Source: a virus
Taxonomy: Duplodnaviria; Heunggongvirae; Uroviricota; Caudoviricetes
Direction: 5' to 3' (one strand)
Virus record (IMG/VR): IMGVR_UViG_2734482778_000005
Coordinates: 1 to 10,057 of that record
Length of the DNA: 10,057 bases
The position numbers were made by a program, and so were the translations under genes. The first letter of the stretch is position 1, and each line of letters begins with the position of its first letter. This document shows positions 1 to 10,057 of the stretch, piece by piece. The notes beneath the pieces are model-generated. The model saw nothing but the letters and a program-made list of their open reading frames with translations, ran no database searches and was not told where the DNA came from.

Positions 1-105
1 CCAGAAAATGTTGTCCGGCGTGCGCCACTGATCGCCCACTTCCTTCAGTTCATGGGCTGGTTTGTTCCGCAGTTCCACCAGCGCCTGGCAATATTTATTA
101 CTCAT
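1..105 (-). CDS. N-terminal 35 codons of a gene that continues beyond the window start; possible phage Dam-type DNA N6-adenine methyltransferase
   Basis: Minus-strand ATG at 105-103 overlaps the TAA stop of the upstream gene (TAATG). Reads MSNKYCQALVELRNKPAHELKEVGDQWRTPDNIFW with no stop to the window edge. Codon usage is host-like (CTG, GCG, CCG). The D-x-W-R-T-P motif near the N-terminus resembles phage Dam-family methyltransferases; this is recalled, not searched. Confidence 0.4.
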   Translation of the reverse strand, partial: MSNKYCQALVELRNKPAHELKEVGDQWRTPDNIFW

Positions 106-599
106 TAAGCCCCCACGTAATTCCCTGACAGATACCACTCATCACCCGATACAGCGCGCTTGCTGCTTTTCCGTAAACACTGCTCACGACGCGCCAGAAA
201 ATTGTTTCGTTCTGGCTGGGAGTGGCTTTCACGGAATGCCGCCATCCACACCGTTGCAGCACGACGGTATAAGCCCCTGGACTCCAGTTCTTCCGCCTGG
301 CGGGTCAGGCACAAAATCACCCGGGGATCGTTAGTGCCGACATAGAAATTGCGCACAGGTCTGGTTTCACGAACTGGTTGTGGTTCCGGCTCCTGCGCTC
401 TCTCAGTCAGGCGTGGGAAATGTCTGCGTGTATCTCCTTCACAACGGTGAGCCACACGCCCACTCTGACGTAACTTGCTTGCTGACTGCAGAACGCGCTG
501 CCGTGAGTAACCTGCAAAAGCATCCGCAATGTCTCCGGAAGTACACCCCGGATGGGCTTCAATGAATTTCTGAACGTCATTTAACAGACTCATGATCAC
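105..599 (-). CDS. Hypothetical prophage protein, 164 aa, with a C-terminal PerC-like motif (LESRGLYRRAATVW); possibly YfdN-like
   Basis: Complete ORF on the minus strand. Its ATG at 599-597 overlaps the stop of the O-like gene (ATGA). The C-terminal half carries a motif recalled from the PerC/Pch regulator family. The length equals what I recall for K-12 YfdN, but that is not verified. Confidence 0.65.
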   Translation of the reverse strand: MIMSLLNDVQKFIEAHPGCTSGDIADAFAGYSRQRVLQSASKLRQSGRVAHRCEGDTRRHFPRLTERAQEPEPQPVRETRPVRNFYVGTNDPRVILCLTRQAEELESRGLYRRAATVWMAAFRESHSQPERNNFLARREQCLRKSSKRAVSGDEWYLSGNYVGA

Positions 600-1588
600 C
601 CCCTGAATCCTGCCGGGATCTGGCTGTAGTCCACGTTGTCGTAACTGGCTTTGAAGTACGGGTCTTCACGTTTTTCTGTGTGCGTGCTGACGGACGGCGA
701 TAAGCGCAGGGAAAGCTCATCCCATTTTTCCCGCAACTTCGACGGGCTGAGCACGTTACGGCACCAGAACGGATCGCGGCTGACGCGGCTGTACATCTCG
801 CAGATTTGTTTGTGAGTACGACCATCCTGCACACACATCAGGCGAATTTCGTTTGCCCATGCTGTCCAGTTCGGTTCTTTGGGACGAACCACCTCGCCGT
901 CACATTCGGCGGCCTGCTCGTACAGGGCGATGATTTTTTTCCAGAGCCACTGTGCGCAGGTCAAATCATCCTGCGTTCCCCACTGGCGCTTTTTAGGGCT
1001 GAATACAACCGCATCAGGATGGCGAGTTAAAAACTCCTGTTCAGCCGTTTGCGTGTCCGGTTGCGAAGCGTCCGGACGAGAAGAGGTTTTATTCTCTGTA
1101 GTAATCTCTGTTGTATTCTCTGTAAGATCATTGGGCCATTTTGACCCGATGACAGCGTGTCGTTTTGAACCAATGGATCGTGTCATTTTGCGCCCATCCA
1201 TCAGGTCACTTTGACCCGATGGAGAAGTGCATTTTGACCCGATGGATTCGTTCACTTTGACCTCTTCTAAAAGCTCACTTTCATAGTTGATCGTGTAGAA
1301 GTTGGTCATGTCACGCTTCGATTTATTGAGTTGCTCGCGACGCAAAACCCCAAGTGATTTCAGGCTTGCAAATGTGCGTTTCAGAGTGGACTCTGACCAG
1401 AACGGAAACTGCTCCAGCCACTGTTCTGTCGTGTTATAAACCCAGCGAATTCCGCCATGCTCAGTGCCTGAATTCGTTTCATTCAGCCAGTAATGAAGCT
1501 GCTGCAACACAATTGCCTCATTCAGACCAATACGGCATGCAAGATCACGATTTATCACAATGGGCTGGGATGTCATTAACAGGCTCAT
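596..1588 (-). CDS. Lambdoid replication initiator (O-like), 330 aa, with the replication origin embedded in its coding sequence
   Basis: ATG at 1588 is preceded by GAGGT with a 5-nt spacer. The direct repeats at 1139-1264 fall in the middle of the ORF and encode the repeated SIGSK peptide, as iterons do in lambda O. Downstream gene is coupled by an ATGA overlap. Confidence 0.85.
   Translation of the reverse strand: MSLLMTSQPIVINRDLACRIGLNEAIVLQQLHYWLNETNSGTEHGGIRWVYNTTEQWLEQFPFWSESTLKRTFASLKSLGVLRREQLNKSKRDMTNFYTINYESELLEEVKVNESIGSKCTSPSGQSDLMDGRKMTRSIGSKRHAVIGSKWPNDLTENTTEITTENKTSSRPDASQPDTQTAEQEFLTRHPDAVVFSPKKRQWGTQDDLTCAQWLWKKIIALYEQAAECDGEVVRPKEPNWTAWANEIRLMCVQDGRTHKQICEMYSRVSRDPFWCRNVLSPSKLREKWDELSLRLSPSVSTHTEKREDPYFKASYDNVDYSQIPAGFRG
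1081..1264. repeat. Putative phage origin: six direct iterons at about 23-bp spacing (core TTTTGACCCGATGGA, starting near 1139, 1163, 1186, 1209, 1232, 1255) next to an AT-rich tract (1081-1138) carrying short TTCTCTGT repeats
   Basis: Direct reading of the sequence: four near-identical and two degenerate copies of the TTTTGACC core, phased at 23-24 bp, abutting an AT-rich stretch. This is the classic iteron plus AT-rich lambdoid ori-within-O layout. Confidence 0.65.
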
Positions 1589-1757
1589 GACCGACCTCTA
1601 TTTCCCTGAATTTACGACGAAACTGTTCGAGCGGACTGAAGCATTCATGTTCATAGCCTTCACGGAGGTAGATAACCCGTTGTGTTTCCGGCTCCCAACG
1701 AATGACTCTGACGGGCACTCCGTAGTGATCTTTGAACCAGCGGTTAACTTGTCGCAA
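1545..1757 (-). CDS. Alternative small ORF (70 aa, TTG start); mutually exclusive with most of 1598-1936
   Basis: TTG start is preceded by AAGGAGA with a 7-nt spacer. The product ([40 protein letters not shown]...) has a globular-looking composition. It overlaps the O-like start by 44 nt and overlaps the 112-aa ORF in another frame. Confidence 0.3.
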
Positions 1758-1936
1758 AGGACTGTCTCCTTCTGCCGGTTGAAATCACCCACAGCCCACT
1801 CTGCAAAGCTGTGGGTTACAATTTCCCTGTCACCTGGTACATTCACTGCATAGCAATACTCCACCTTCGCTTTTCCACCCGGTACAGGAAGCGCAATCAG
1901 TTGCGAGCGACGGTAGTGTGTTGTTAAACTGTTCAT
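1598..1936 (-). CDS. Hypothetical protein, 112 aa, between the CII-like and O-like genes
   Basis: ATG at 1936 overlaps the stop of the upstream CII-like gene (ATGA). GGAGA lies 9 nt upstream. The TAG stop at 1600-1598 sits 9 nt before the O-like ATG, inside its ribosome-binding site, which is typical operon spacing. The C-terminal half is S/T/N-rich and less protein-like. Confidence 0.45.
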
Positions 1937-2517
1937 GCGTTAGTTTCTCCACAACCAGAAGCAATCGACGCCACGACGCCCGGAGCTGCACACTCGCGGG
2001 CGTTACTCTTTTCCGGCGCACAAAAAACACGAAATAACAGTGTTAAATGCTCCTGCCACTTCGCCATTACTTGGTAGCTGTTCTCTTCGATTTGCTCACG
2101 CTCAGCCTGGTCAATAACTCCATCAGCAGTTGCCTTGCGTAAGTACTGGGAATGCTTGCCAATCCATTCTATTGACTCCATCAGCCGCTGATTAATGTCA
2201 CCATTGTCAATGTCATCAATGACCACCAGCGGCACAAACACCCCATTACTACGACGGGCTATTGCATCTGTTACATGCCTGGTACCACTGGCATCCTGTA
2301 AAACCATGGCCCACTCAAGTGGAAAAATTTGATCCCCACCGCTACGCAGTCTGTTATGCAATTGATCTTTTGCTGGGGTGATATCATCAGATTTATACAA
2401 ACCAAGAATTTCTGCTGCTTCCTCATAGCCATGAGGTAAATCAGCAATCGTTCTTCGTATTGCTGCCACCAGCCATGCTGGTTGTTTATCAACTTTCCAT
2501 TCAGGTTCTTTACCCAC
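1933..2517 (-). CDS. Phage CII-like regulatory protein (CP76/YdaT-type), 194 aa, GTG start
   Basis: GTG at 2517-2515 is preceded by GAGGA with a 7-nt spacer. It sits immediately downstream of the Cro-like gene (27-nt gap), in the cII position. The central region ([10 protein letters not shown]...[25 protein letters not shown]) resembles CII/CP76-type regulators from memory. Confidence 0.7.
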
Positions 2518-2544
2518 GGTTAATTCCTCATTTCTGTGGTGTTT

Positions 2545-2742
2545 TTATGCCGCAGCACTGTTAGTCTTTTGATATAAAGACACGTCAACTTTCAGTTTCC
2601 CGTTAGTAATTTTTTCTAACTGGTACGCTCGGCCTTCAGGAATAATCTCAGGCCACTCTGAAACAGACGGATGCTTAATACCTAGGGCTTCGGCGGTTTT
2701 ACAAACTCCGCCGAAATAATTAATCACGTCGGATTTCCGCAT
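2545..2742 (-). CDS. Cro-like small HTH regulator (YdaS/Cro family), 65 aa
   Basis: ATG at 2742 is preceded by GGGAGA with a 5-nt spacer. It is the first gene leftward of the operator cluster and divergent from the cI-like gene. The HTH-like segment is GGVCKTAEALGIKHPSVSEW. Confidence 0.8.
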   Translation of the reverse strand: MRKSDVINYFGGVCKTAEALGIKHPSVSEWPEIIPEGRAYQLEKITNGKLKVDVSLYQKTNSAAA

Positions 2743-2773
2743 TTCTGTCTCCCGTTAAATTACGTTAAGCAGA

Positions 2774-2840
2774 AATGTAGGATATCCAACATGCCAATGT
2801 CAAGAATCCTACATGGGCATGTGGTAGGATTGCCTACATG
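2774..2840. promoter_or_regulatory. OR-like operator region: three 18-bp imperfect palindromes (2775-2792, 2797-2814, 2822-2839) overlapping a leftward PR-like promoter (-35 TTGACA at 2803-2798, -10 TACATT at 2779-2774, minus strand) and the cI start
   Basis: Direct reading. The sites are ATGTAGGATATCCAACAT, ATGTCAAGAATCCTACAT and TGGTAGGATTGCCTACAT, sharing the half-site ATGT(A/T)GGAT. The promoter is TTGACA, 18-nt spacer, TACATT, aimed at the cro-like gene. Confidence 0.6.
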
Positions 2841-3491
2841 ATGAACATGAGTGATCGTATTCGCCAAAGGCGAAAAGAACTGAACCTGACACAACAAGCA
2901 CTGGCTGATTTGACTGGTGTGAACCGTGTCACGGTTACTGGATGGGAAAAGGACGACTACCAACCAAATGGAGCCAACCTTCAAGCCCTAGCCAACGCAC
3001 TTAAATGCGATCCTCTGTGGCTTGTTAGCGGAAAAGGCTCGCCTGAACCAAAGATAAATCTAAAACCTGAAATATTCGCAGTTAAAAAAGTCCCCCTCAT
3101 CTCGTGGGTTCAGGCGGGTTCATGGACAATGACGGAGCCTGGTGTCAGGAAAGAAGATGCTGAAGAGTGGGTTTATACTACCGCCCTTGTATCAGAAATG
3201 GCATTTGCACTACGGGTCCGTGGTGATTCAATGACCAATCCCCTCGGCTCACCATCGATACCAGAAGGTTCTATCGTTATCGTAGAGCCAGATATTATTG
3301 ATACAGAGTGTATTAACGGAAAAATCGTTGTTGCCCATATCAATGGTGGGCAAGAAGCGACACTCAAAAAATTTGTTGAGGACTGGCCGAACAGGTATCT
3401 CGTCCCACTAAATCCTAACTATAAAACTATTGAATGCGGTGAGAACTGCAGAATAGTTGGTCTTGTCAAACAAGTAATAATGGATTTTTGA
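2838..3491 (+). CDS. cI: cI-like prophage repressor: N-terminal XRE-type HTH plus C-terminal S24 (LexA-like) autopeptidase domain, 217 aa
   Basis: HTH segment LTQQALADLTGVNRVTVTGWE. A candidate Ala-Gly cleavage site (VQAGSW). The catalytic Ser sits in the GDSM context and a Lys in ATLKKF. The start overlaps the third operator; alternative ATGs lie at 2841 and 2847. Confidence 0.9.
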   Translation: MMNMSDRIRQRRKELNLTQQALADLTGVNRVTVTGWEKDDYQPNGANLQALANALKCDPLWLVSGKGSPEPKINLKPEIFAVKKVPLISWVQAGSWTMTEPGVRKEDAEEWVYTTALVSEMAFALRVRGDSMTNPLGSPSIPEGSIVIVEPDIIDTECINGKIVVAHINGGQEATLKKFVEDWPNRYLVPLNPNYKTIECGENCRIVGLVKQVIMDF

Positions 3492-3511
3492 CACATCTTC
3501 CTCACTATCGC

Positions 3512-3537
3512 AAAACCGGGGTATCCCCGGTTTTTTT
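3512..3537 (+). terminator. Rho-independent terminator after cI (stem AAAACCGGGG / CCCCGGTTTT, 3-nt loop, T7 tail)
   Basis: Perfect 10-bp GC-rich inverted repeat followed by TTTTTTT, 21 nt after the cI stop. The A-tract upstream makes it potentially bidirectional. Confidence 0.7.
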
Positions 3538-3553
3538 ATGAGCCTATCTTTTT

Positions 3554-3607
3554 ATGTAGGATAACCAACATAAACTCTTGACACTCACATGTTGGATATC
3601 CTACATT
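3554..3607 (+). promoter_or_regulatory. OL/PL-like region: two 18-bp operators (3554-3571, 3589-3606) bracketing a rightward promoter (-35 TTGACA at 3578-3583, -10 TACATT at 3602-3607)
   Basis: The operators ATGTAGGATAACCAACAT and ATGTTGGATATCCTACAT share the OR half-site. The promoter has the same TTGACA, 18-nt spacer, TACATT geometry as PR. Confidence 0.6.
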
Positions 3608-3765
3608 TGTTTTTAGAGTTGTGGTGAATGCGCAGGCTGATGCGCGAAAGACATTGCAGCTATTGCGGAAAAGAGCTGTTCGGCGGGGCAATTAAACGCC
3701 CGTGAGAGTCTGAAATAACCGCAAGCCGGAGATCAGCACCGGTCACCACAACAGCCACTGCTTTG

Positions 3766-3813
3766 GCGGTACCAGTTTGTACACTTGCTTCCGGCTGGTA
3801 CCGCTCTTTTTAC
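3766..3813 (+). other. Strong hairpin in the PL leader (10-bp perfect stem GCGGTACCAG / CTGGTACCGC, 19-nt loop, then TCTTTTT); possible attenuator or terminator
   Basis: Perfect inverted repeat read directly, followed by a T-rich run, about 135 nt upstream of the first early-left gene. Function is not established. Confidence 0.3.
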
Positions 3814-3948
3814 AAAACAGAGAAGAGCATCACCGGACGACGGGCTCATAACCCAATCCATCCGGGCGGCTGCCACCGCAGGTGTTCTTCTCTGTTTTGT
3901 GGAGAAACTAACCGACCTTGCAGGGTCGATATGATGAGGAGCAGCAAA

Positions 3949-4311
3949 ATGGCTAGCGAACGCAGTACTGATGTGCAGGCATTTATTGGGGAGCTGGACG
4001 GCGGCGTATTTGAAACCAAAATCGGCGCAGTTCTCAGTGAAGTCGCTTCCGGTGTGATGAACACGAAAACCAAAGGTAAGGTCTCGCTCAACCTGGAAAT
4101 CGAACCGTTTGATGAGAATCGTGTGAAAATCAAACACAAACTCTCGTATGTTCGCCCGACTAACCGCGGGAAAATTTCCGAAGAAGACACCACCGAAACG
4201 CCGATGTATGTCAATCGCGGTGGTCGCCTGACTATTCTGCAGGAAGACCAGGGACAATTACTGACTCTTGCTGGTGAACCTGACGGAAAACTCCGCGCAG
4301 CAGGTCATTAA
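3949..4311 (+). CDS. yfdP: YfdP-like prophage protein, 120 aa
   Basis: ATG at 3949 is preceded by GAGGAG with a 7-nt spacer. The ORF-track start at 3763 is a TTG with an implausible N-terminal extension. Length and position directly upstream of the YfdQ/YfdR-like genes match the CPS-53 yfdP-yfdQ-yfdR order as I recall it. Confidence 0.65.
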   Translation: MASERSTDVQAFIGELDGGVFETKIGAVLSEVASGVMNTKTKGKVSLNLEIEPFDENRVKIKHKLSYVRPTNRGKISEEDTTETPMYVNRGGRLTILQEDQGQLLTLAGEPDGKLRAAGH

Positions 4312-4376
4312 TATCGTTCTTAATTAACTGATTATTTATCTCATCACTGAATATCTTTATATAGTGAGGACTTATT

Positions 4377-5201
4377 ATGTCTCAGAACTTAGACGCAACC
4401 GCAATTAATCAAATCCATGCCCTTATTTCTGCTCAGGGTGTTAATGAAATTATCAGTAAGATTGGTGCCGATGCTGTGGCATTGCCTGAGAATTTCCGCA
4501 TTCATGATCTGGAAAAATTTAATTTAAATCGCTTCCGTTTCCGTGGTGCGCTTTCCACTGCCAGCATCGATGACTTTACCCGTTATTCTAAAGATCTTGC
4601 AGATGAAGGCACCCGCTGCTTTATCGATGCTGATAATATGCGTGCCGTCAGTGTGCTTAACCTGGGTACTATTGATGAACCAGGTCACGCAGATAACACC
4701 GCCACTCTCAAACTGAAAAAGACAGCACCGTTCTCTGCTCTGTTGTCTGTTAATGGCGAGCGTAACTCCCAGAAATCACTGGCAGAATGGATTGAAGACT
4801 GGGCCGACTACCTTGTGGGCTTTGATACTAATGGTGACACCATTCAGGCAACAAAAGCGGCTGCGGCGGTCCGTAAAATCACGATTGAAGCAAACCAGAC
4901 CGCTGATTTTGAGGATAATGACTTCAGCGGCAAACGCTCCCTGATGGAGTCTGTCGAAGCGAAGACCAAAGACATTATGCCAGTGGCATTTGAATTTAAA
5001 TGCGTTCCGTTTGAAGGCCTTAAAGAACGTCCGTTTAAATTACGCCTCAGCATTATCACTGGCGATCGTCCTGTACTGGTTCTGCGCATTATTCAGCTGG
5101 AAGCGGTGCAGGAAGAAATGGCTAACGAATTTCGTGATCTGCTTGTTGAGAAATTCAAAGACAGCAAAGTAGAAACCTTTATTGGTACTTTCACCGCCTG
5201 A
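4377..5201 (+). CDS. yfdQ: YfdQ-like protein (DUF2303 family), 274 aa
   Basis: ATG is preceded by GAGGA with a 6-nt spacer. It is a long clean ORF with host-like codon usage. The sequence and length match my recollection of CPS-53 YfdQ. Confidence 0.8.
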
Positions 5202-5213
5202 TTTCATTACTGC

Positions 5214-5235
5214 AAATGCCCCTGCGGGGGCATTT
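5214..5235 (+). terminator. Terminator-like hairpin after yfdQ (AAATGCCCC, loop TGCG, GGGGCATTT) with a weak U-tail
   Basis: Perfect 9-bp inverted repeat 13 nt after the yfdQ stop. Only three T residues follow, so it is probably a partial terminator or an RNA-stability element. Confidence 0.3.
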
Positions 5236-5329
5236 ATGGAAACGTAATTAACTCAATAATCGCCGGATGGTGAGGGCTTCCTTTTACCCGAATTCAGCGC
5301 GGTGCAGCGCATATAACGTGGAGAACAAA

Positions 5330-5866
5330 ATGTCATTTATTAAAACTTTTTCCGGGAAGCATTTTTATTATGACAGGATAAATAAAGACAACATCGATAT
5401 TAACGATATCGCGGTTTCCCTTTCAAATATCTGTCGCTTTGCCGGTCATCTTTCACACTTCTACAGCGTCGCCCAACATGCGGTGCTTTGCAGCCAGCTG
5501 GTGCCGCAGGAATTTGCTTTTGAAGCGTTAATGCATGATGCAACAGAAGCGTATTGCCAGGACATCCCCGCGCCACTGAAACGCCTTCTTCCTGACTATA
5601 AACGGATGGAAGAAAAAATAGACGCCGTAATCCGTGAGAAATACGGGTTACCCCCGGTTATGAGTACGCCCGTGAAATATGCCGATCTCATCATGCTGGC
5701 AACCGAACGCCGTGATCTCGGGCTTGATGATGGCTCTTTCTGGCCTGTACTGGAAGGCATCCCGGCAACAGAGATGTTCAACGTGATTCCACTGGCACCG
5801 GGCCATGCCTACGGGATGTTTATGGAACGCTTCAACGAGTTATCGGAATTACGCAAATGTGCATAA
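5330..5866 (+). CDS. yfdR: YfdR-like HD-domain phosphohydrolase (5'-deoxynucleotidase-type), 178 aa
   Basis: ATG at 5330 is preceded by GGAG. HD motif (ALMHDATEA) and upstream His residues are present. Length and sequence match my recollection of K-12 YfdR. The ORF-track start at 5267 is an upstream in-frame extension. Confidence 0.8.
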   Translation: MSFIKTFSGKHFYYDRINKDNIDINDIAVSLSNICRFAGHLSHFYSVAQHAVLCSQLVPQEFAFEALMHDATEAYCQDIPAPLKRLLPDYKRMEEKIDAVIREKYGLPPVMSTPVKYADLIMLATERRDLGLDDGSFWPVLEGIPATEMFNVIPLAPGHAYGMFMERFNELSELRKCA

Positions 5867-6735
5867 CTCATGTAGTTAGTTTTTCTGGCGGGAGAACATC
5901 TGCATATCTTGTTCACCTGATGGAAGAACAAAGAAAGGCTGGCAATAACGTCTGCTACATCTTTATGGATACCGGTTGCGAACATCCGCTGACATACCGC
6001 TTTATTCGGGAGGTTGTGAAGTTCTGGGGCATACCGCTAACTGTGTTGCAGGTCGATATAAATCCAGAGCTTGGGCAGCCAAATGGTTATACGGAATGGG
6101 AACCAAAGGATATTCAGACACGAATGCCGGTGCTTAAACCGTTTATGGACATGGTAAAAAAATATGGCACGCCATACATCGGCGGCGCATTCTGCACTGA
6201 CAGATTAAAACTCACCCCCTTCACAAAATACTGCGATGACCATTTCGGACGAGGGAATTACATCACATGGCTGGGTATTCGTGCAGACGAACCTCGTAGG
6301 CTGAAACCGAAATCGGGCGTCCGGTATCTTGCCGAGCTATCTGATTTTGATAAGTCGGATGTTATCCGGTGGTGGCATAAACAACCTTTTGATTTGCAAA
6401 TCCCGGAGCACCTCGGGAACTGTGTTTTCTGCATCAAAAAGTCCACGCAAAAGCTGGGGCTTGCATGTAAAGACGAACCTGGTCTGATGCGAGTTTTTAA
6501 TGAGCTGGTTACAGGTAAACACGTCCGGGATGGTCACCGAAAGACAAATAAAGACGTTATGTACCGTGGTCATCTGAGCCTTGACGGGATTGCCAGAATG
6601 TATGCCGACAGCGACTACAGAAATTTGTATCAGGCGATGGTGCAAGCCAGGCGATTCGATACCGGCTCGTGTTCAGGGTCATGTGAAATCTGGGGTGATC
6701 AATTGGAGTTGAAATTCGAAGAGGTGGTGGCATGA
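5857..6735 (+). CDS. PAPS-reductase-like PP-loop ATP-pyrophosphatase family protein, 292 aa
   Basis: N-terminal PP-loop SFSGGRTS (SGGxxS type). The start overlaps the yfdR stop by 10 nt and the stop overlaps the next start (ATGA). It is a long ORF with several Cys residues near the C-terminus. Confidence 0.8.
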   Translation: MCITHVVSFSGGRTSAYLVHLMEEQRKAGNNVCYIFMDTGCEHPLTYRFIREVVKFWGIPLTVLQVDINPELGQPNGYTEWEPKDIQTRMPVLKPFMDMVKKYGTPYIGGAFCTDRLKLTPFTKYCDDHFGRGNYITWLGIRADEPRRLKPKSGVRYLAELSDFDKSDVIRWWHKQPFDLQIPEHLGNCVFCIKKSTQKLGLACKDEPGLMRVFNELVTGKHVRDGHRKTNKDVMYRGHLSLDGIARMYADSDYRNLYQAMVQARRFDTGSCSGSCEIWGDQLELKFEEVVA

Positions 6736-7205
6736 CAACCAAAATTAACTATCAGGCACTGCGTGAGGCGGCAGAAGCAATAAAAATAGTAGCCACACCA
6801 CAAAAATTGCTGGCATTTCGTATGAAAGTCACACCGCAGGTTGTGCTGGCGCTGCTGGATGAGCTGGAAGCAGCAGAGAAGCGAAACGCTGAATTACAAA
6901 GCGAGAATGCATACATCCGCAACCGGTACAAAGAACTGGACCTATTAATCGGGAAAAACATTCTGGTCATGCAGGCTGCCATTATCGAATGGCAGGCAAC
7001 TGGCGACGCTAAGAGCGGACTGGCATGGATTTATAACACACTGTTTGGCCCTGGCGAATTACCGGACGAATCTGAGAAAGATGCTCAGGCCTACTTTAAT
7101 CGCAAATATGCACCGATTGACGAAAAGCTTATGGCGCTTCACAAGTGGTTTTGGGAACAAAGTGAAGCCGAGCGCGCCGCTGGCATTCGCATCAAAGGAG
7201 AGTGA
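6732..7205 (+). CDS. Ea22-like (ead/Ea22 family) phage early protein, 157 aa
   Basis: ATGA overlap with the upstream gene; GAGGTG ribosome-binding site. The N-terminal YQALREAAEA and coiled-coil-like central region resemble Ea22-family prophage proteins from memory. Confidence 0.6.
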   Translation: MTTKINYQALREAAEAIKIVATPQKLLAFRMKVTPQVVLALLDELEAAEKRNAELQSENAYIRNRYKELDLLIGKNILVMQAAIIEWQATGDAKSGLAWIYNTLFGPGELPDESEKDAQAYFNRKYAPIDEKLMALHKWFWEQSEAERAAGIRIKGE

Positions 7206-7206
7206 T

Positions 7207-7470
7207 ATGGCAACTTTGACAAAAAAGGAACAGGCATGGTTGAGCGAATTACAGAACGTTCTTGATCGCTGCCCGTCACCGAAAAAAATTGGTTTTTACA
7301 CCATTGGCGATAAAAACATTTACCTGTATGACCTACGCCGCATGGATGAAATCATGGAGGCTCTTGATAATCGTTCGTCAATGGATTGGTGTGTTGCTGT
7401 CCATGATATGAATGCCGGATTTGAAGAAAAGATTTTGTTCCCCTCGTCAGTTGAAAGCACAGCGGGTTAA
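7207..7470 (+). CDS. Hypothetical phage protein, 87 aa
   Basis: ATG at 7207 is preceded by AGGAG with an 8-nt spacer and starts 1 nt after the upstream TGA. The ORF-track start at 7045 is an in-frame extension overlapping the upstream gene. Confidence 0.6.
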   Translation: MATLTKKEQAWLSELQNVLDRCPSPKKIGFYTIGDKNIYLYDLRRMDEIMEALDNRSSMDWCVAVHDMNAGFEEKILFPSSVESTAG

Positions 7471-7480
7471 GGACTAACAC

Positions 7481-7945
7481 ATGACAACGTTCACCGACAA
7501 AGAACTGATTAAAGAAATCAAAGAGCGCATAGGCAGCCTGCCAGAATTAATCGAAGGCATGGAAGTTTCCATTGATGTAAGCACTTGTGATGCTGATTTA
7601 GGTAATCGCTATTTCGGCACCGTCACCGAGGCGTTAGAACTTGATACAGCCAAGAATGGTTACATCCTCCTGGTTCAGGACGCAGAGCCAAACTTCGATG
7701 TAAATGGCAACTCTCCGGGAACTCCGGATAGTTGGATAAGCTGTAGTGATCGAATGCCTGAAAAGGGCCAGAACGTGCTTATTTCGGTGAATTTCGATAG
7801 CTCTCTGGTTGAACCGCTAATATGCTCCGCACGCTATACCGGAAGCACCTTTCGGCGCGGAGATGCAACGATTAAGCCGGGTAATGGTATTGAGCAAGCA
7901 ACTCACTGGATGCCGCTACCGGAACCGCCGCAGGAGGTGAAGTGA
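7481..7945 (+). CDS. DUF551-family phage protein, 154 aa
   Basis: AAGGA with a 7-nt spacer. The C-terminal segment (WISCSDRMPEKGQNVLI ... HWMPLPEPP) matches the DUF551 pattern as I recall it. Confidence 0.7.
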   Translation: MTTFTDKELIKEIKERIGSLPELIEGMEVSIDVSTCDADLGNRYFGTVTEALELDTAKNGYILLVQDAEPNFDVNGNSPGTPDSWISCSDRMPEKGQNVLISVNFDSSLVEPLICSARYTGSTFRRGDATIKPGNGIEQATHWMPLPEPPQEVK

Positions 7946-8517
7946 TGAACAACTTAATGATCGACCTTGAGACGATGGGGAAAAATAAGGATGCACCGAT
8001 CGTTTCCATTGGCGCGGTGTTCTTCACTCCAGAAACCGGAGACATCGGACAAGAATTCTATACGGTTGTTAGCCTGGAAAGTGCTATGGGGCAAGGAGCT
8101 ACACCTGACGGCGATACCATCCTGTGGTGGTTGAAACAAAGCCCTGAAGCACGAGCTGCAATCTGTATTGATGATACTTTGTCGATCAGCGATGCTCTCT
8201 CAGAACTAAATCATTTCATTAACCGGCACGCAGCCAATACGAAATATTTAAAAGTCTGGGGTAACGGGGCCACCTTCGACAACGTAATTTTACGTGGAGC
8301 TTATGAGCGAGCAGGACAAATCTGCCCGTGGGCATACTGGAATGACCACGATGTACGCACGATCGTTACGCTTGGGCGTTCCATCGGATTCGACCCCAAA
8401 ATGGACATCCCTTTCGATGGCGAACGGCACAACGCCCTAGCCGATGCCCGTCATCAGGCAAAATATGTTTCCGCTATCTGGCAGAAATTAATTCCTGCCA
8501 CCAGCACAGAATTATGA
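7945..8517 (+). CDS. DEDD-type (DnaQ-like) 3'-5' exonuclease, 190 aa
   Basis: Exo I motif IDLETMG, Exo II region WGNGATFDNVIL and Exo III HNALADARH are in the expected order. ATG at 7945 has AGGAGG with a 7-nt spacer; the GTG at 7942 in the ORF track is too close to that site. It overlaps the upstream stop (TGATG). Confidence 0.8.
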   Translation: MNNLMIDLETMGKNKDAPIVSIGAVFFTPETGDIGQEFYTVVSLESAMGQGATPDGDTILWWLKQSPEARAAICIDDTLSISDALSELNHFINRHAANTKYLKVWGNGATFDNVILRGAYERAGQICPWAYWNDHDVRTIVTLGRSIGFDPKMDIPFDGERHNALADARHQAKYVSAIWQKLIPATSTEL

Positions 8518-8553
8518 TTTTCCCGGGTGCAGCCGGTTTTGATGGAGAAAATT

Positions 8554-8826
8554 ATGAATACCTTGTTTTTACTGATGGCTGAATTCAATACCCCTAACAT
8601 TGAACTCTCAGCAGTTAGCCAAAAGTACTTTGGCATGAGTCCAGCCACGGCAGAAGCAAAAGCAAACGCTTGTAAGTTGCCCGTTCCAACATATCGCATC
8701 GGCACATCACAAAAAGCAAAACGTTGCATCAATATTCAGGATCTTGCGGAATACATAGACAAAAGGCGAGAAGAAGGGCGTGCTGAGTGGGAAAGGGTCA
8801 GAACCCATAAACAAAGGCTCATTTAA
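8554..8826 (+). CDS. PrtN-family / excisionase-like small DNA-binding protein, 90 aa
   Basis: ATG at 8554 is preceded by GGAGA. The product (MNTLFLLMAEFNTPNIELSAVSQKYFGMSPATAEAKANACKLPVPTYR...) resembles PrtN/Xis-like proteins from memory. It is the last gene of the rightward operon. Confidence 0.6.
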   Translation: MNTLFLLMAEFNTPNIELSAVSQKYFGMSPATAEAKANACKLPVPTYRIGTSQKAKRCINIQDLAEYIDKRREEGRAEWERVRTHKQRLI

Positions 8827-8834
8827 ATAGAATA

Positions 8835-8866
8835 TGAATAAACCCATCCAAAGATGGGTTTATTCA
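8835..8866. terminator. Perfect 14-bp inverted repeat (TGAATAAACCCATC, loop CAAA, GATGGGTTTATTCA) between convergent genes; candidate bidirectional terminator
   Basis: Read directly. The right arm contains the stop codon of the minus-strand gene. A T-rich run follows on the minus-strand transcript, so it probably works better for the leftward cassette. Confidence 0.5.
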
Positions 8867-9321
8867 TAATGTTGAAGAGCAGCGAGTATCAGTTTTTTAT
8901 GCCGTTTAACCATAGTTTTAGATATCTCAACTGCACATCGAACTTGTCTCATACAATGATCTGTAATGCGACCTTTTAGCACGTCACCATATTGGATGGC
9001 TATTTTCTCTTTAATAATTTCAAGATCGAAAGCAGCATGAGCCTCAATGCAATTAACAAATGAGTCCCATTTAAGAAAATCATGGTCCTCTCTATTAATT
9101 TCGACCTGACAAGCCATAAGATCATTGTTTCTCTTAATAAATTCATTTATATCTGAATTTATTAGAAGAACTAAAAGAGGTTCACAGCAAACAACCACCA
9201 TATATTTTACTTTAGGTGGGGTCGTAAAATCACAATGAAGATACAATACATCACCGGGTGATATACCTCTTTCACGACTAAAATTAGCCTTAAAATCAGG
9301 AGGGAAACAATCACCCAGCAT
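8860..9321 (-). CDS. Hypothetical protein, 153 aa, no family recognised; candidate toxin or effector partner of the upstream Panacea-domain gene
   Basis: ATG at 9321-9319 lies 5 nt after the TGA of the Panacea-domain gene. The ORF track extends to a TTG at 9330, which would give an ATGA-type overlap. AT-rich codon usage differs from the rest of the window. No known motif identified by eye. Confidence 0.65.
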   Translation of the reverse strand: MLGDCFPPDFKANFSRERGISPGDVLYLHCDFTTPPKVKYMVVVCCEPLLVLLINSDINEFIKRNNDLMACQVEINREDHDFLKWDSFVNCIEAHAAFDLEIIKEKIAIQYGDVLKGRITDHCMRQVRCAVEISKTMVKRHKKLILAALQHYE

Positions 9322-9326
9322 AAGTA

Positions 9327-9908
9327 TCAATATCCGTTCTTCAGATAATCCAGTATTAATTTGCTATTTTTTAGCTGTGCAACTATCGATTCCAAAGACA
9401 TCTCACCATTGTGATCTGCCTGTTCCCATGCCGCGTCATGGCTCATGGTTCTGATAGCTTCAAAGGACATGTTTCCAAGCATCGCGATAGACTTATCAAT
9501 ACACTCTAAATCTGAGTCACTAAAAAAGTCTTCATCAGCTTCACGGCTCGGCACAATCGTCATACCTGATACAGAAAATGCTTTTCGCACAGAATCGACA
9601 TCACAACCATTAGGAATGTAACGTCCATCTCCACGAGCAATTTTTATAATATCGTATGTGTTGCTTGCTACAGGCCCATCCTTCATAGCGTTATAGTGAT
9701 CGCCCGTTATGAGGCGTCCAAAACTTTCAAGGTGAAACCTGTCAGCATAATAAAGAATTTTTCCGACATGATAGATATCTGGGATCGGTGCTTTAGAGGC
9801 GACGTACAGAATGGCCTCTAAAGCCTTTTCTGAATCAAACCTTACATTTAGCATCAATACACCCTTCATCCAAACAACATCGTCAAGCTCTGGCAAATGC
9901 AACCGCAT
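9327..9908 (-). CDS. Panacea (DUF4065) domain protein, SocA/GepA-like, 193 aa (possibly 175 aa from an internal ATG at 9854)
   Basis: N-terminal region (EAILYVASKAP-IPDIYHVGKILYYADRFHLESFGRLITGDHYNAMKDGPV) matches the Panacea/COG3600 signature (KLxKLLYYA ... GPV). The C-terminal part (LSDSDLECIDKSIAMLGNMSFEAIRTMSHDAAWEQA) matches the second conserved block. No ribosome-binding site precedes the ATG at 9908; AAGGG precedes the ATG at 9854. Confidence 0.7.
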   Translation of the reverse strand: MRLHLPELDDVVWMKGVLMLNVRFDSEKALEAILYVASKAPIPDIYHVGKILYYADRFHLESFGRLITGDHYNAMKDGPVASNTYDIIKIARGDGRYIPNGCDVDSVRKAFSVSGMTIVPSREADEDFFSDSDLECIDKSIAMLGNMSFEAIRTMSHDAAWEQADHNGEMSLESIVAQLKNSKLILDYLKNGY

Positions 9909-9920
9909 CCGCCTTCTACA

Positions 9921-9950
9921 ATCTTAAAGTCTTCACCTACGCTAGGTCAA
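9921..9950 (-). promoter_or_regulatory. Candidate sigma70 promoter for the leftward two-gene cassette (-35 TTGACC at 9950-9945, 18-nt spacer, -10 TAAGAT at 9926-9921)
   Basis: Hexamers read on the minus strand upstream of the Panacea-domain gene. The -10 matches the consensus at 4 of 6 positions. Weak call. Confidence 0.25.
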
Positions 9951-10057
9951 TTGAAGTGATGAGCAAATGATGCTTTCTAAGAAGAACAGGTTCCCAATAG
10001 GCTCCCACAAAGTGTATAACTACTTGTTTTTCAAAAACGGTACATCCTATCGAGCAT

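Follow-up and report, generated by a model that had tools for sequence, protein, structure and literature searches.

The window analysed here, a 10,057-nt stretch of the tailed-phage record IMGVR_UViG_2734482778_000005, ends on its right side in an AT-rich cassette of two minus-strand genes, in which panA, encoding an antitoxin of the Panacea (DUF4065) type, is followed by a gene for a putative toxin with a predicted MazF/CcdB-type fold. We consider it probable that the segment 8805-9988 is a horizontally exchanged two-gene Panacea antitoxin-toxin (PanAT) module, residing in an accessory-gene ('moron') slot between the xis-like gene and the phage attachment site (attP) of a lambdoid, mEp460-like prophage that integrates at the dusA 5' end, and that it works as proposed below. 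The identification builds on domain identity, predicted fold, gene pairing, breakpoints, alternative cargos, attachment-site geometry and composition, all of which were established here.

A Panacea antitoxin paired with a predicted MazF-fold toxin

Panacea antitoxins (PanA) are paired with many unrelated toxins (PanT), as catalogued by Kurata et al. 2022 (PNAS, PMC8832971), who obtained stable PanA:PanT complexes for five pairs, classed PanAT systems as type II, and validated two pairs with toxins that are MazF-like by HHpred alone. In the window, PanA matches the Pfam family PF13274 with 72.9 bits (E 5.2e-20, cut-off 25.7), residues 50-161 covering positions 3-112 of the 113 in the profile. 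The panA stop codon is located 5 nt before the ATG of the toxin gene (9321, yielding 153 aa), or overlaps by 4 nt with an alternative TTG start (9330, 156 aa). Moreover, the toxin-family members WP_065390163.1, WP_036849733.1 and WP_046973966.1 (53-56% identical) are listed under cluster T5 in the part of the Kurata supplementary table covered here, where the entries of these accessions are paired with a PanA lacking the N-terminal domain and arranged in antitoxin-toxin order (PMC8832971). For a T5 representative, the HHpred run of that study gives ~99.5% for EndoA/MazF and ~98.5% for CcdB (PMC8832971), in independent agreement with the fold search made here.

With a Panacea domain, an antitoxin-first operon of very short spacing and a partner in a catalogued PanT cluster, the cassette is a predicted PanAT-type toxin-antitoxin of cluster T5, its toxin having a predicted MazF/CcdB fold, and hence a new example of an already described system. 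It shares with the published T5 pairs the Panacea/DUF4065 antitoxin, the gene order, the near-zero spacing, the T5 accessions and the fold call, and differs from them in that no E. coli or prophage T5 member appears in the covered parts of the table, and in that a prophage-slot context is not described there. The cassette's own accessions were not found in the covered part of that table, whose two E. coli rows belong to T1 and T3. Cluster T6, which includes the validated P. moraviensis toxin, was considered as well, as T6 lists Photorhabdus and other Enterobacterales, and was rejected, the accessions falling in T5 in the table part covered.

Neither cassette protein has a usable match in PADLOC or NCBIfam, and the 153-aa toxin matches no Pfam family either. 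Because the toxin is not connected with MazF/PemK or CcdB by any sequence model, the fold assignment rests on the predicted structure, in which an SH3-like barrel of the MazF/CcdB type is found, and on the published HHpred result. An hhalign comparison of the toxin family with a MazF alignment gave a probability of 30% (E 5.4e-4), and less than 1% when the family alignment (A1) was set against single MazF and EndoA sequences. In the former, the near-invariant N55 aligns with the MazF Thr position, and the invariant K39, placed by eye only, sits where the MazF Arg would be; both are conservative-looking substitutions of Thr and Arg, respectively, not identities. Catalysis in MazF relies on an Arg in the β1-β2 loop and a Thr/Ser at the end of β3, as in the B. 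subtilis and S. aureus proteins, and the Lys and Asn of the toxin may occupy these positions. Compared with the MazF/PemK/Kid family (PF02452), to which it shows no significant sequence-model match, the toxin is ~40 residues longer, with extra C-terminal helices, and its partner is a Panacea antitoxin and not MazE/PemI.

The annotated start of panA at 9908 is probably not the true one. Orthologs from Klebsiella (81% identical), Photorhabdus (61%) and Morganella (56%) all start at the position of Met19, and an AAGGG lies 7 nt upstream of its codon at 9854, a better Shine-Dalgarno sequence than that at 9908; because of the shared start in three genera and this upstream motif, we place the likely start at 9854, 18 codons downstream of the annotated one, giving a protein of 175 aa. 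Within panA lies a perfect 11-nt inverted repeat with a 13-nt loop (9790-9824), and a 17-nt inverted repeat of 88% complementarity is found inside the toxin gene (9129-9170); no function is suggested for either.

A search for related loci with the toxin alignment A1 recovered 14 loci, mostly from Photorhabdus. Outside the E. coli slot the pair was found in four unrelated settings, its adjacency always kept: in Photorhabdus beside cueO/speE and an insertion sequence (IS) element, in Klebsiella in a phage tail module after the tape-measure gene, on a compost metagenome contig, and in Morganella. The GC content of the pair and its surroundings is 0.438 and 0.543 in the Klebsiella phage, 0.388 and 0.495 in Morganella, and 0.433 and 0.533 on the compost contig, while in Photorhabdus it equals that of the surroundings (0.390 vs 0.382). 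The PanA-toxin pair is a mobile unit. In Morganella morganii (L013, 1431-3536), the pair is located between dinI and an integrase next to dus, in another dusA-targeting element, and there on the int side of attP, not the xis side; because of this placement, both positions next to the attachment site accept PanA-toxin cargo.

Decay of the toxin gene was also detected. In E. coli AST20 (L033), a 1-nt insertion in an A-run (equivalent to ~8999-9005 of the window) causes a +1 frameshift after toxin residue 107, leaving a toxin of 112 aa beside an intact PanA. An E. coli protein in the 90% cluster of the toxin, present on 82 contigs, likewise has 112 aa; judged by length alone, the allele therefore probably represents a genuine variant of a lineage and no sequencing artefact. 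Truncation of the toxin with PanA intact is the kind of decay expected for a toxin gene; together with the 'Toxic' score of one published T5 member, it lends indirect support to a growth-inhibitory toxin that its cognate PanA would neutralise by forming a complex.

An exchangeable slot between xis and the attachment site

The cassette occupies a replaceable segment with sharp borders. By blastn, the last position homologous to the phages mEp460 and PhiR40_1 is 8804, 22 nt short of the stop codon of the xis-like gene, and homology returns at 9987-9989; the last 22 nt of this PrtN-family gene (8805-8826) already differ between cargo types. Five cargo types, all on the minus strand, were found between the same flanks in E. 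coli prophages and phages (Table 1). Cargo type 2 carries WP_000287252.1, the experimentally validated PanA(Esc. col.) of Table 1 in Kurata et al. (PMC8832971), so that an experimentally validated E. coli PanAT sits in the same prophage slot in another strain. This membrane-depolarising pair, PanA(Esc. col.)-PanT(Esc. col.) of E. coli STEC O31, resembles the cassette in that WP_000287252.1 in E. coli 2014C-4135 (L016) occupies the same slot in the same orientation and in the same prophage family. The pairs differ in that the two antitoxins share only a short stretch of ~30% identity, and in that the 182-aa toxin, a T3 protein with C-terminal transmembrane segments, has no MazF fold. WP_000287252.1 is labelled 'NotPhage' in the covered part of the Kurata table; in 2014C-4135 (NZ_CP027310.1, L016 4132-4605) it lies within the xis-att slot of the dusA prophage.

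The three PanA proteins of the slot are ~30% identical over part of their length only, and cargo types 4 and 5 have upstream proteins that are related neither to them nor to each other. That the latter are cryptic Panacea proteins was rejected at the sensitivity of Pfam matching and pairwise comparison, both of which yielded nothing. Certain sub-modules are nevertheless shared: on the left, the 57-aa gene beside the hairpin described below (L002 4345-4518 and L017 3584-3757) is 98% identical between types 4 and 3, and on the right, window positions 9945-9988, comprising the -35 element of the candidate promoter and the sequence upstream, recur in type 3, the unrelated 190-aa PanA cassette of L017/L018. 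Such sharing indicates recombinational mosaicism of the slot.

Among the 742 E. coli genomes matching the region, 46 carry the cassette, always as a single chromosomal copy of at least 97.8% identity and never on a plasmid, and the same number displays the full slot context; no phage record in the searched collection carries it. The original prediction of a separately acquired AT-rich block is consequently borne out by the two breakpoints, by at least four other cargos and by the restricted occurrence of the cassette, and a conserved-core status of the two genes in related prophages, named beforehand as refuting, was not seen. The word 'insertion' was ill chosen. A synthetic junction of xis-hairpin and att arm, representing an empty slot, was searched against 5,426 genomes, and none of the 30 best records matched across the junction (12 further records with at least 80% coverage lie outside these 30), and the hairpin is present with every cargo type. 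The change appears to be the replacement of a cassette in an occupied slot, not insertion into an empty site.

On the left, the slot is bordered by an inverted repeat that occupies the 33-nt gap between the plus-strand stop codon of the PrtN/xis-like gene (8826) and the minus-strand stop codon of the toxin gene (8860-8862), the latter falling inside the right arm. Because the hairpin fills the gap between stops on opposite strands, the flanking genes are convergent, as predicted from the outset; the predicted hairpin is likewise perfect and lies between these genes, its stem measuring 16 bp in an inverted-repeat search and not 14. RNA folding gave -24.4 kcal/mol on the plus and -23.0 kcal/mol on the minus strand (z -7.3 and -5.9; none of 200 shuffles was as stable). 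On the plus strand the stem is followed by AAUGUUGAAG, and the lower stem is itself U-rich (UUUAUUCAUA). In alignment, the hairpin has the same position after xis in all five cargo types; its outer AACCC...GGGTT is conserved, and the inner stem varies among cargo types yet still pairs. In total, 92.7% of the cells are paired and 5 of 11 pairs have changes on both sides, with none of 500 shuffles as good, among five sequences of which two are nearly identical; slid controls reached at most 51% paired and no compensatory change. Because it is kept, with compensatory changes, across all cargo types, we regard the hairpin as a conserved part of the slot itself rather than a consequence of the arrival of the PanA-toxin cassette.

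On the right, an alignment of six sequences shows no or almost no variation in any column from GGTTCCCAATAGG... onward, and this arm matches the attP of mEp460; arm and core together make up 69 nt (9989-10057) common to all six contexts. In the alignment of attR, attP and attL, attR tracks attP up to the core TCGAGCAT and then follows the host, and attL does the reverse. The attachment site, placed beyond the window by the original prediction by an error of a few bases, is accordingly within it, the core being 10050-10057. Nor does the integrase gene lie beyond the right edge: because the order in mEp460 is xis - cargo - attP - int, int comes to the far end of the prophage upon integration. 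Indeed, in E. coli LH85-a (NZ_CP100486.1), whose chromosome is 99.9% identical to 7539-10057, a 105-nt dusA 5' pseudogene fragment starts right after the cassette, from the equivalent of window position 10049, and is followed on the host side by a DUF2713-protein gene and by zur, yjbJ, dinF and lexA, and the intact dusA and the integrase are found at the other end, ~56 kb away. About 108 nt of dusA 5' homology are duplicated at the two prophage ends (83% identical).

The LH85-a locus displays the features of dusA-associated integrase elements, i.e. insertion at the dusA 5' end, int adjacent to dusA and imperfect direct repeats. It resembles the elements of Farrugia et al. 2015 (NAR, PMC4482086) in the integrase beside a restored dusA, the imperfect direct repeats and the leftover dusA 5' fragment at the far junction; in that study the integrase is the only universal feature and the cargo is highly mosaic. 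What is added here is a fixed slot, from xis-hairpin to att arm, with alternative toxin-antitoxin cargos in E. coli lambdoid phages. Accessory-gene and defence hotspots have been described in P2-like phages and P4-like satellites, and the present slot is like them in that, beside the attachment site, conserved flanks surround cargo that varies, is AT-rich and has transcription of its own, and unlike them in phage family and position.

The compositional break that had drawn attention to the region is real. Sliding-window analysis yielded a GC content of 0.33-0.34 at 8801-9400 as compared to ~0.46-0.51 across 7600-8800, and 0.384 between the homology breakpoints (8805-9986) as compared to 0.479 for 1-8804, in which no window of 1182 nt falls below 0.436 (mean 0.474, sd 0.018); the AT-richer right end is thereby confirmed, and a uniform profile, named beforehand as refuting, was not seen. 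The drop is uneven between the two genes of the block. The toxin gene (8860-9321) is a true outlier, with a GC of 0.348 and a third-position GC (GC3) of 0.227, and panA (9327-9908; GC 0.418, GC3 0.387) lies just at the lower limit of what the window shows, GC3 being 0.39-0.565 in its eleven other genes, among them the repressor (0.394), CII (0.400) and xis (0.418). The claim of deviating codon usage consequently holds clearly for one of the two genes, that of the toxin. All five slot cargos are AT-richer than the adjoining phage DNA (0.389-0.430 vs 0.452-0.480), the PanA-toxin cassette being the most extreme.

These data allow a 'hypothetical protein' on at least 1,000 Enterobacteriaceae contigs to be annotated as a predicted MazF-fold toxin paired with a Panacea antitoxin, and assign the two genes to a defined slot of exchangeable content that lies at the edge of a common E. 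coli prophage family, O157:H7 relatives included. The slot offers a natural side-by-side series between identical flanks, with three mutually unrelated Panacea pairs, one YafO pair and a fifth cargo, in which the pairing of Panacea antitoxins with different toxins could be studied and defence by prophage cargo be tested. This slot-level picture, in which a conserved hairpin and a conserved att arm enclose five cargos, three being Panacea-based and one validated by experiment, is a useful addition; it is no conceptual surprise and leaves the concepts of the field unchanged.

Proposed mode of action and alternative explanations

For toxicity, neutralisation, RNase activity, promoter and terminator function and biological role, we infer the following scheme. 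Transcription would run leftward on the minus strand from the sigma-70-like site at 9950-9921, starting near 9914 and leaving a leader of ~60 nt before the probable panA start at 9854, and the toxin would be translated by coupling to panA. As a standalone Panacea protein, PanA would neutralise the toxin by direct binding, by analogy with other standalone-Panacea antitoxins for which this has been shown (PMC10440598). Once freed, the toxin would most likely arrest growth through RNA cleavage as MazF does, and the most likely role of the module would be abortive-infection phage defence, prophage stabilisation, or both. The hairpin at 8833-8868 may act as terminator for transcription from either side, leftward over the cargo and rightward over early-left/xis, a separation that would allow the lysogen to express the cargo without the lytic operon. 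New cargo would enter by recombination in the flanks, i.e. xis and the hairpin on the left and the 69-nt att arm on the right.

Several observations weigh against this scheme. No T5 pair is scored as a validated toxin-antitoxin in the part of the Kurata table examined, the one tested member, of Chryseobacterium bovis, being scored only 'Toxic' (PMC8832971). None of 99 diverse toxin-family members matches PF02452 (E ≤ 1) or PF01845 in a Pfam scan, and toxin-family profiles (A1, A5) found nothing among the sequences of the PDB, leaving the fold without a sequence model. The promoter call is weak because its scan shows no overall enrichment relative to shuffled sequence, the site itself matching the consensus at 9/12 positions. 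In a simple terminator scan, the hairpin is terminator-like on the minus strand only, its plus-strand side remaining unflagged, the stem being very stable on both strands. Finally, PADLOC holds no model for either protein and leaves a defence role unsupported by that library, and Ernits et al. 2023 suggest that Panacea may be a sensor and not only a neutraliser (PMC10440598).

The last point leads to the alternative that survives best, although we hold it for possible rather than likely: that the cassette is primarily an anti-phage sensor-effector acting by abortive infection, in which Panacea would respond to a cue of infection by freeing or activating the toxin, and not a classical addiction or stress toxin-antitoxin. 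Its accessory position in a prophage, antisense to the lytic operon, and a hotspot that holds other toxin-antitoxin-type cargo are in line with such a function, as are the sensor hypothesis and the link between toxin-antitoxin systems and defence drawn by Ernits et al. (PMC10440598). Against it speaks the missing PADLOC match; furthermore, it overlaps with the preferred PanAT explanation instead of excluding it.

A more speculative extension, to which we assign a rather low likelihood, concerns the host promoter. Upon integration the native dusA promoter, with 35 codons, comes to lie directly before the cargo, and the truncated host dusA 5' fragment shares the orientation of all five cargo types. 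Because of this shared orientation, and because a simple scan found no terminator-like site between the dusA' tail and panA, read-through from the host dusA promoter is conceivable. The xis-attP interval of dusA-integrating lambdoid phages might be a dedicated and always-occupied toxin-antitoxin/defence hotspot, its cargo driven by the host dusA promoter only when integrated. If true, integration itself would switch the module on, amounting to lysogeny-specific promoter capture, and the conserved hairpin would shield xis from read-through.

Regarding the toxin, the main alternative action is that of a CcdB-like DNA gyrase poison within a PanAT pair, in place of a MazF-like endoribonuclease. 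The published HHpred values for T5 bring in CcdB alongside EndoA/MazF, while the toxin has neither a sequence-model match to PF01845 nor a CcdB-type C-terminal GyrA-binding end, and we regard gyrase poisoning as improbable. Still less credible, and in our judgement very improbable, is a type VI arrangement as in Caulobacter SocAB, in which the Panacea protein would be a proteolytic adaptor handing the toxin to ClpXP and not a stoichiometric inhibitor. The Panacea domain was first seen in SocA (Pfam name SocA_Panacea), and some sources call members of the cluster 'SocA family protein'; however, the NCBIfam SocA equivalog NF047745 scores 17.4 bits against a cut-off of 190, the partner has a predicted MazF fold and nothing ties it to the replication inhibitor SocB, so that neither a SocA equivalog match nor a SocB-like partner was found, and the stable complexes of the five pairs of Kurata et al. 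place PanAT in type II (PMC8832971). Ordinary mosaic variation in a conserved backbone, with both genes core to the phage lineage, can practically be dismissed: low GC3 occurs elsewhere too (repressor, CII, xis) and PanA alone is no outlier, but the comparative data already refute it, with sharp shared breakpoints, five cargos in identical flanks, the cassette in only 46 of 742 genomes with the flanks, the same pair in unrelated contexts of other genera, and a GC content below that of any equal-length window elsewhere.

Prophage context and further observations

The window comprises the immunity and early-left region of a lambdoid prophage (Table 1). A plus-strand operon after the repressor encodes DUF2303/YfdQ, a YfbR-like nucleotidase, a PAPS reductase, Ea22, DUF551, the exonuclease and the PrtN-family protein. 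The gene of the latter has an alternative GTG start at 8527, is 273 nt according to PGAP in the matching LH85-a chromosome, and has a counterpart in phage mEp460 (gp25) that is annotated 'excisionase'.

Table 1. Features of the window and cargo types of the slot (locus or phage given in the last column where the cargo lies elsewhere).
Feature	Coordinates	Strand	Remarks
CII	1933-2517	-	
Cro	2545-2742	-	
S24/HTH repressor	2838-3491	+	
Rv2179c-like 3'-5' exonuclease	7942-8517	+	
PrtN-family gene	8554-8826	+	last of early-left operon; Pfam PF11112, 3.9e-23
Replaceable segment	8805-9988		~1.18 kb; from end of homology to other-cargo relatives, to invariant att arm
Hairpin	8833-8868		perfect 16-bp inverted repeat, 4-nt loop, arms 8833-8848 and 8853-8868; candidate bidirectional terminator, left slot boundary
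Putative toxin gene	8860-9321	-	predicted MazF/Kid/CcdB-type fold with C-terminal helical extension; cluster T5 of Kurata 2022
panA	9327-9908	-	Panacea/DUF4065 domain, without extra N-terminal domain; 193 aa annotated
Candidate sigma-70-like promoter of panA-toxin operon	9921-9950	-	TTGACC, 18 nt, TAAGAT; 9/12 matches
Phage attP arm	9989-10049		61 nt; invariant in all six cargo contexts examined
Truncated host dusA' reading-frame tail	10031-10057	-	...MLDRMYRF-stop, ending ~10033; enters prophage from host promoter side; same orientation as cassette
att crossover core	10050-10057		TCGAGCAT; last 8 bases of window; prophage/host junction at dusA 5' end
Cargo type 1			PanA-toxin cassette of window
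Cargo type 2			L016; 157-aa PanA WP_000287252.1 and 182-aa protein with C-terminal transmembrane segments
Cargo type 3			L017; 190-aa PanA with 128-aa and 57-aa genes; IS903B-disrupted version in L018
Cargo type 4			mEp460, O157:H7 EC4115; 177-aa and 57-aa hypothetical genes
Cargo type 5			PhiR40_1; 179-aa hypothetical gene and YafO toxin

An Rfam scan of the window at gathering thresholds returned no family. Window positions 3784-3804 on the minus strand are an exact 21-nt match to the start of the 193-nt ArcA-modulated sRNA-17 (0 expected by chance), which in E. coli K1 RS218 lies in an mEp460-like prophage (PMC7719688). The match is inside 3733-4311, a region with two long overlapping open reading frames on opposite strands, of which the plus-strand frame (3763-4311) has no Pfam match. 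A location of sRNA-17 inside the xis-att slot was considered and rejected, the slot sequences being absent from its supplement and the match being at 3784-3804 instead. Finally, the LH85-a prophage (L014, 12232-22266) bears a second small element in its portal gene, which comprises an integrase, a primase, an Icd-like protein, capsid and decoration proteins and a small terminase, and resembles a phage satellite.

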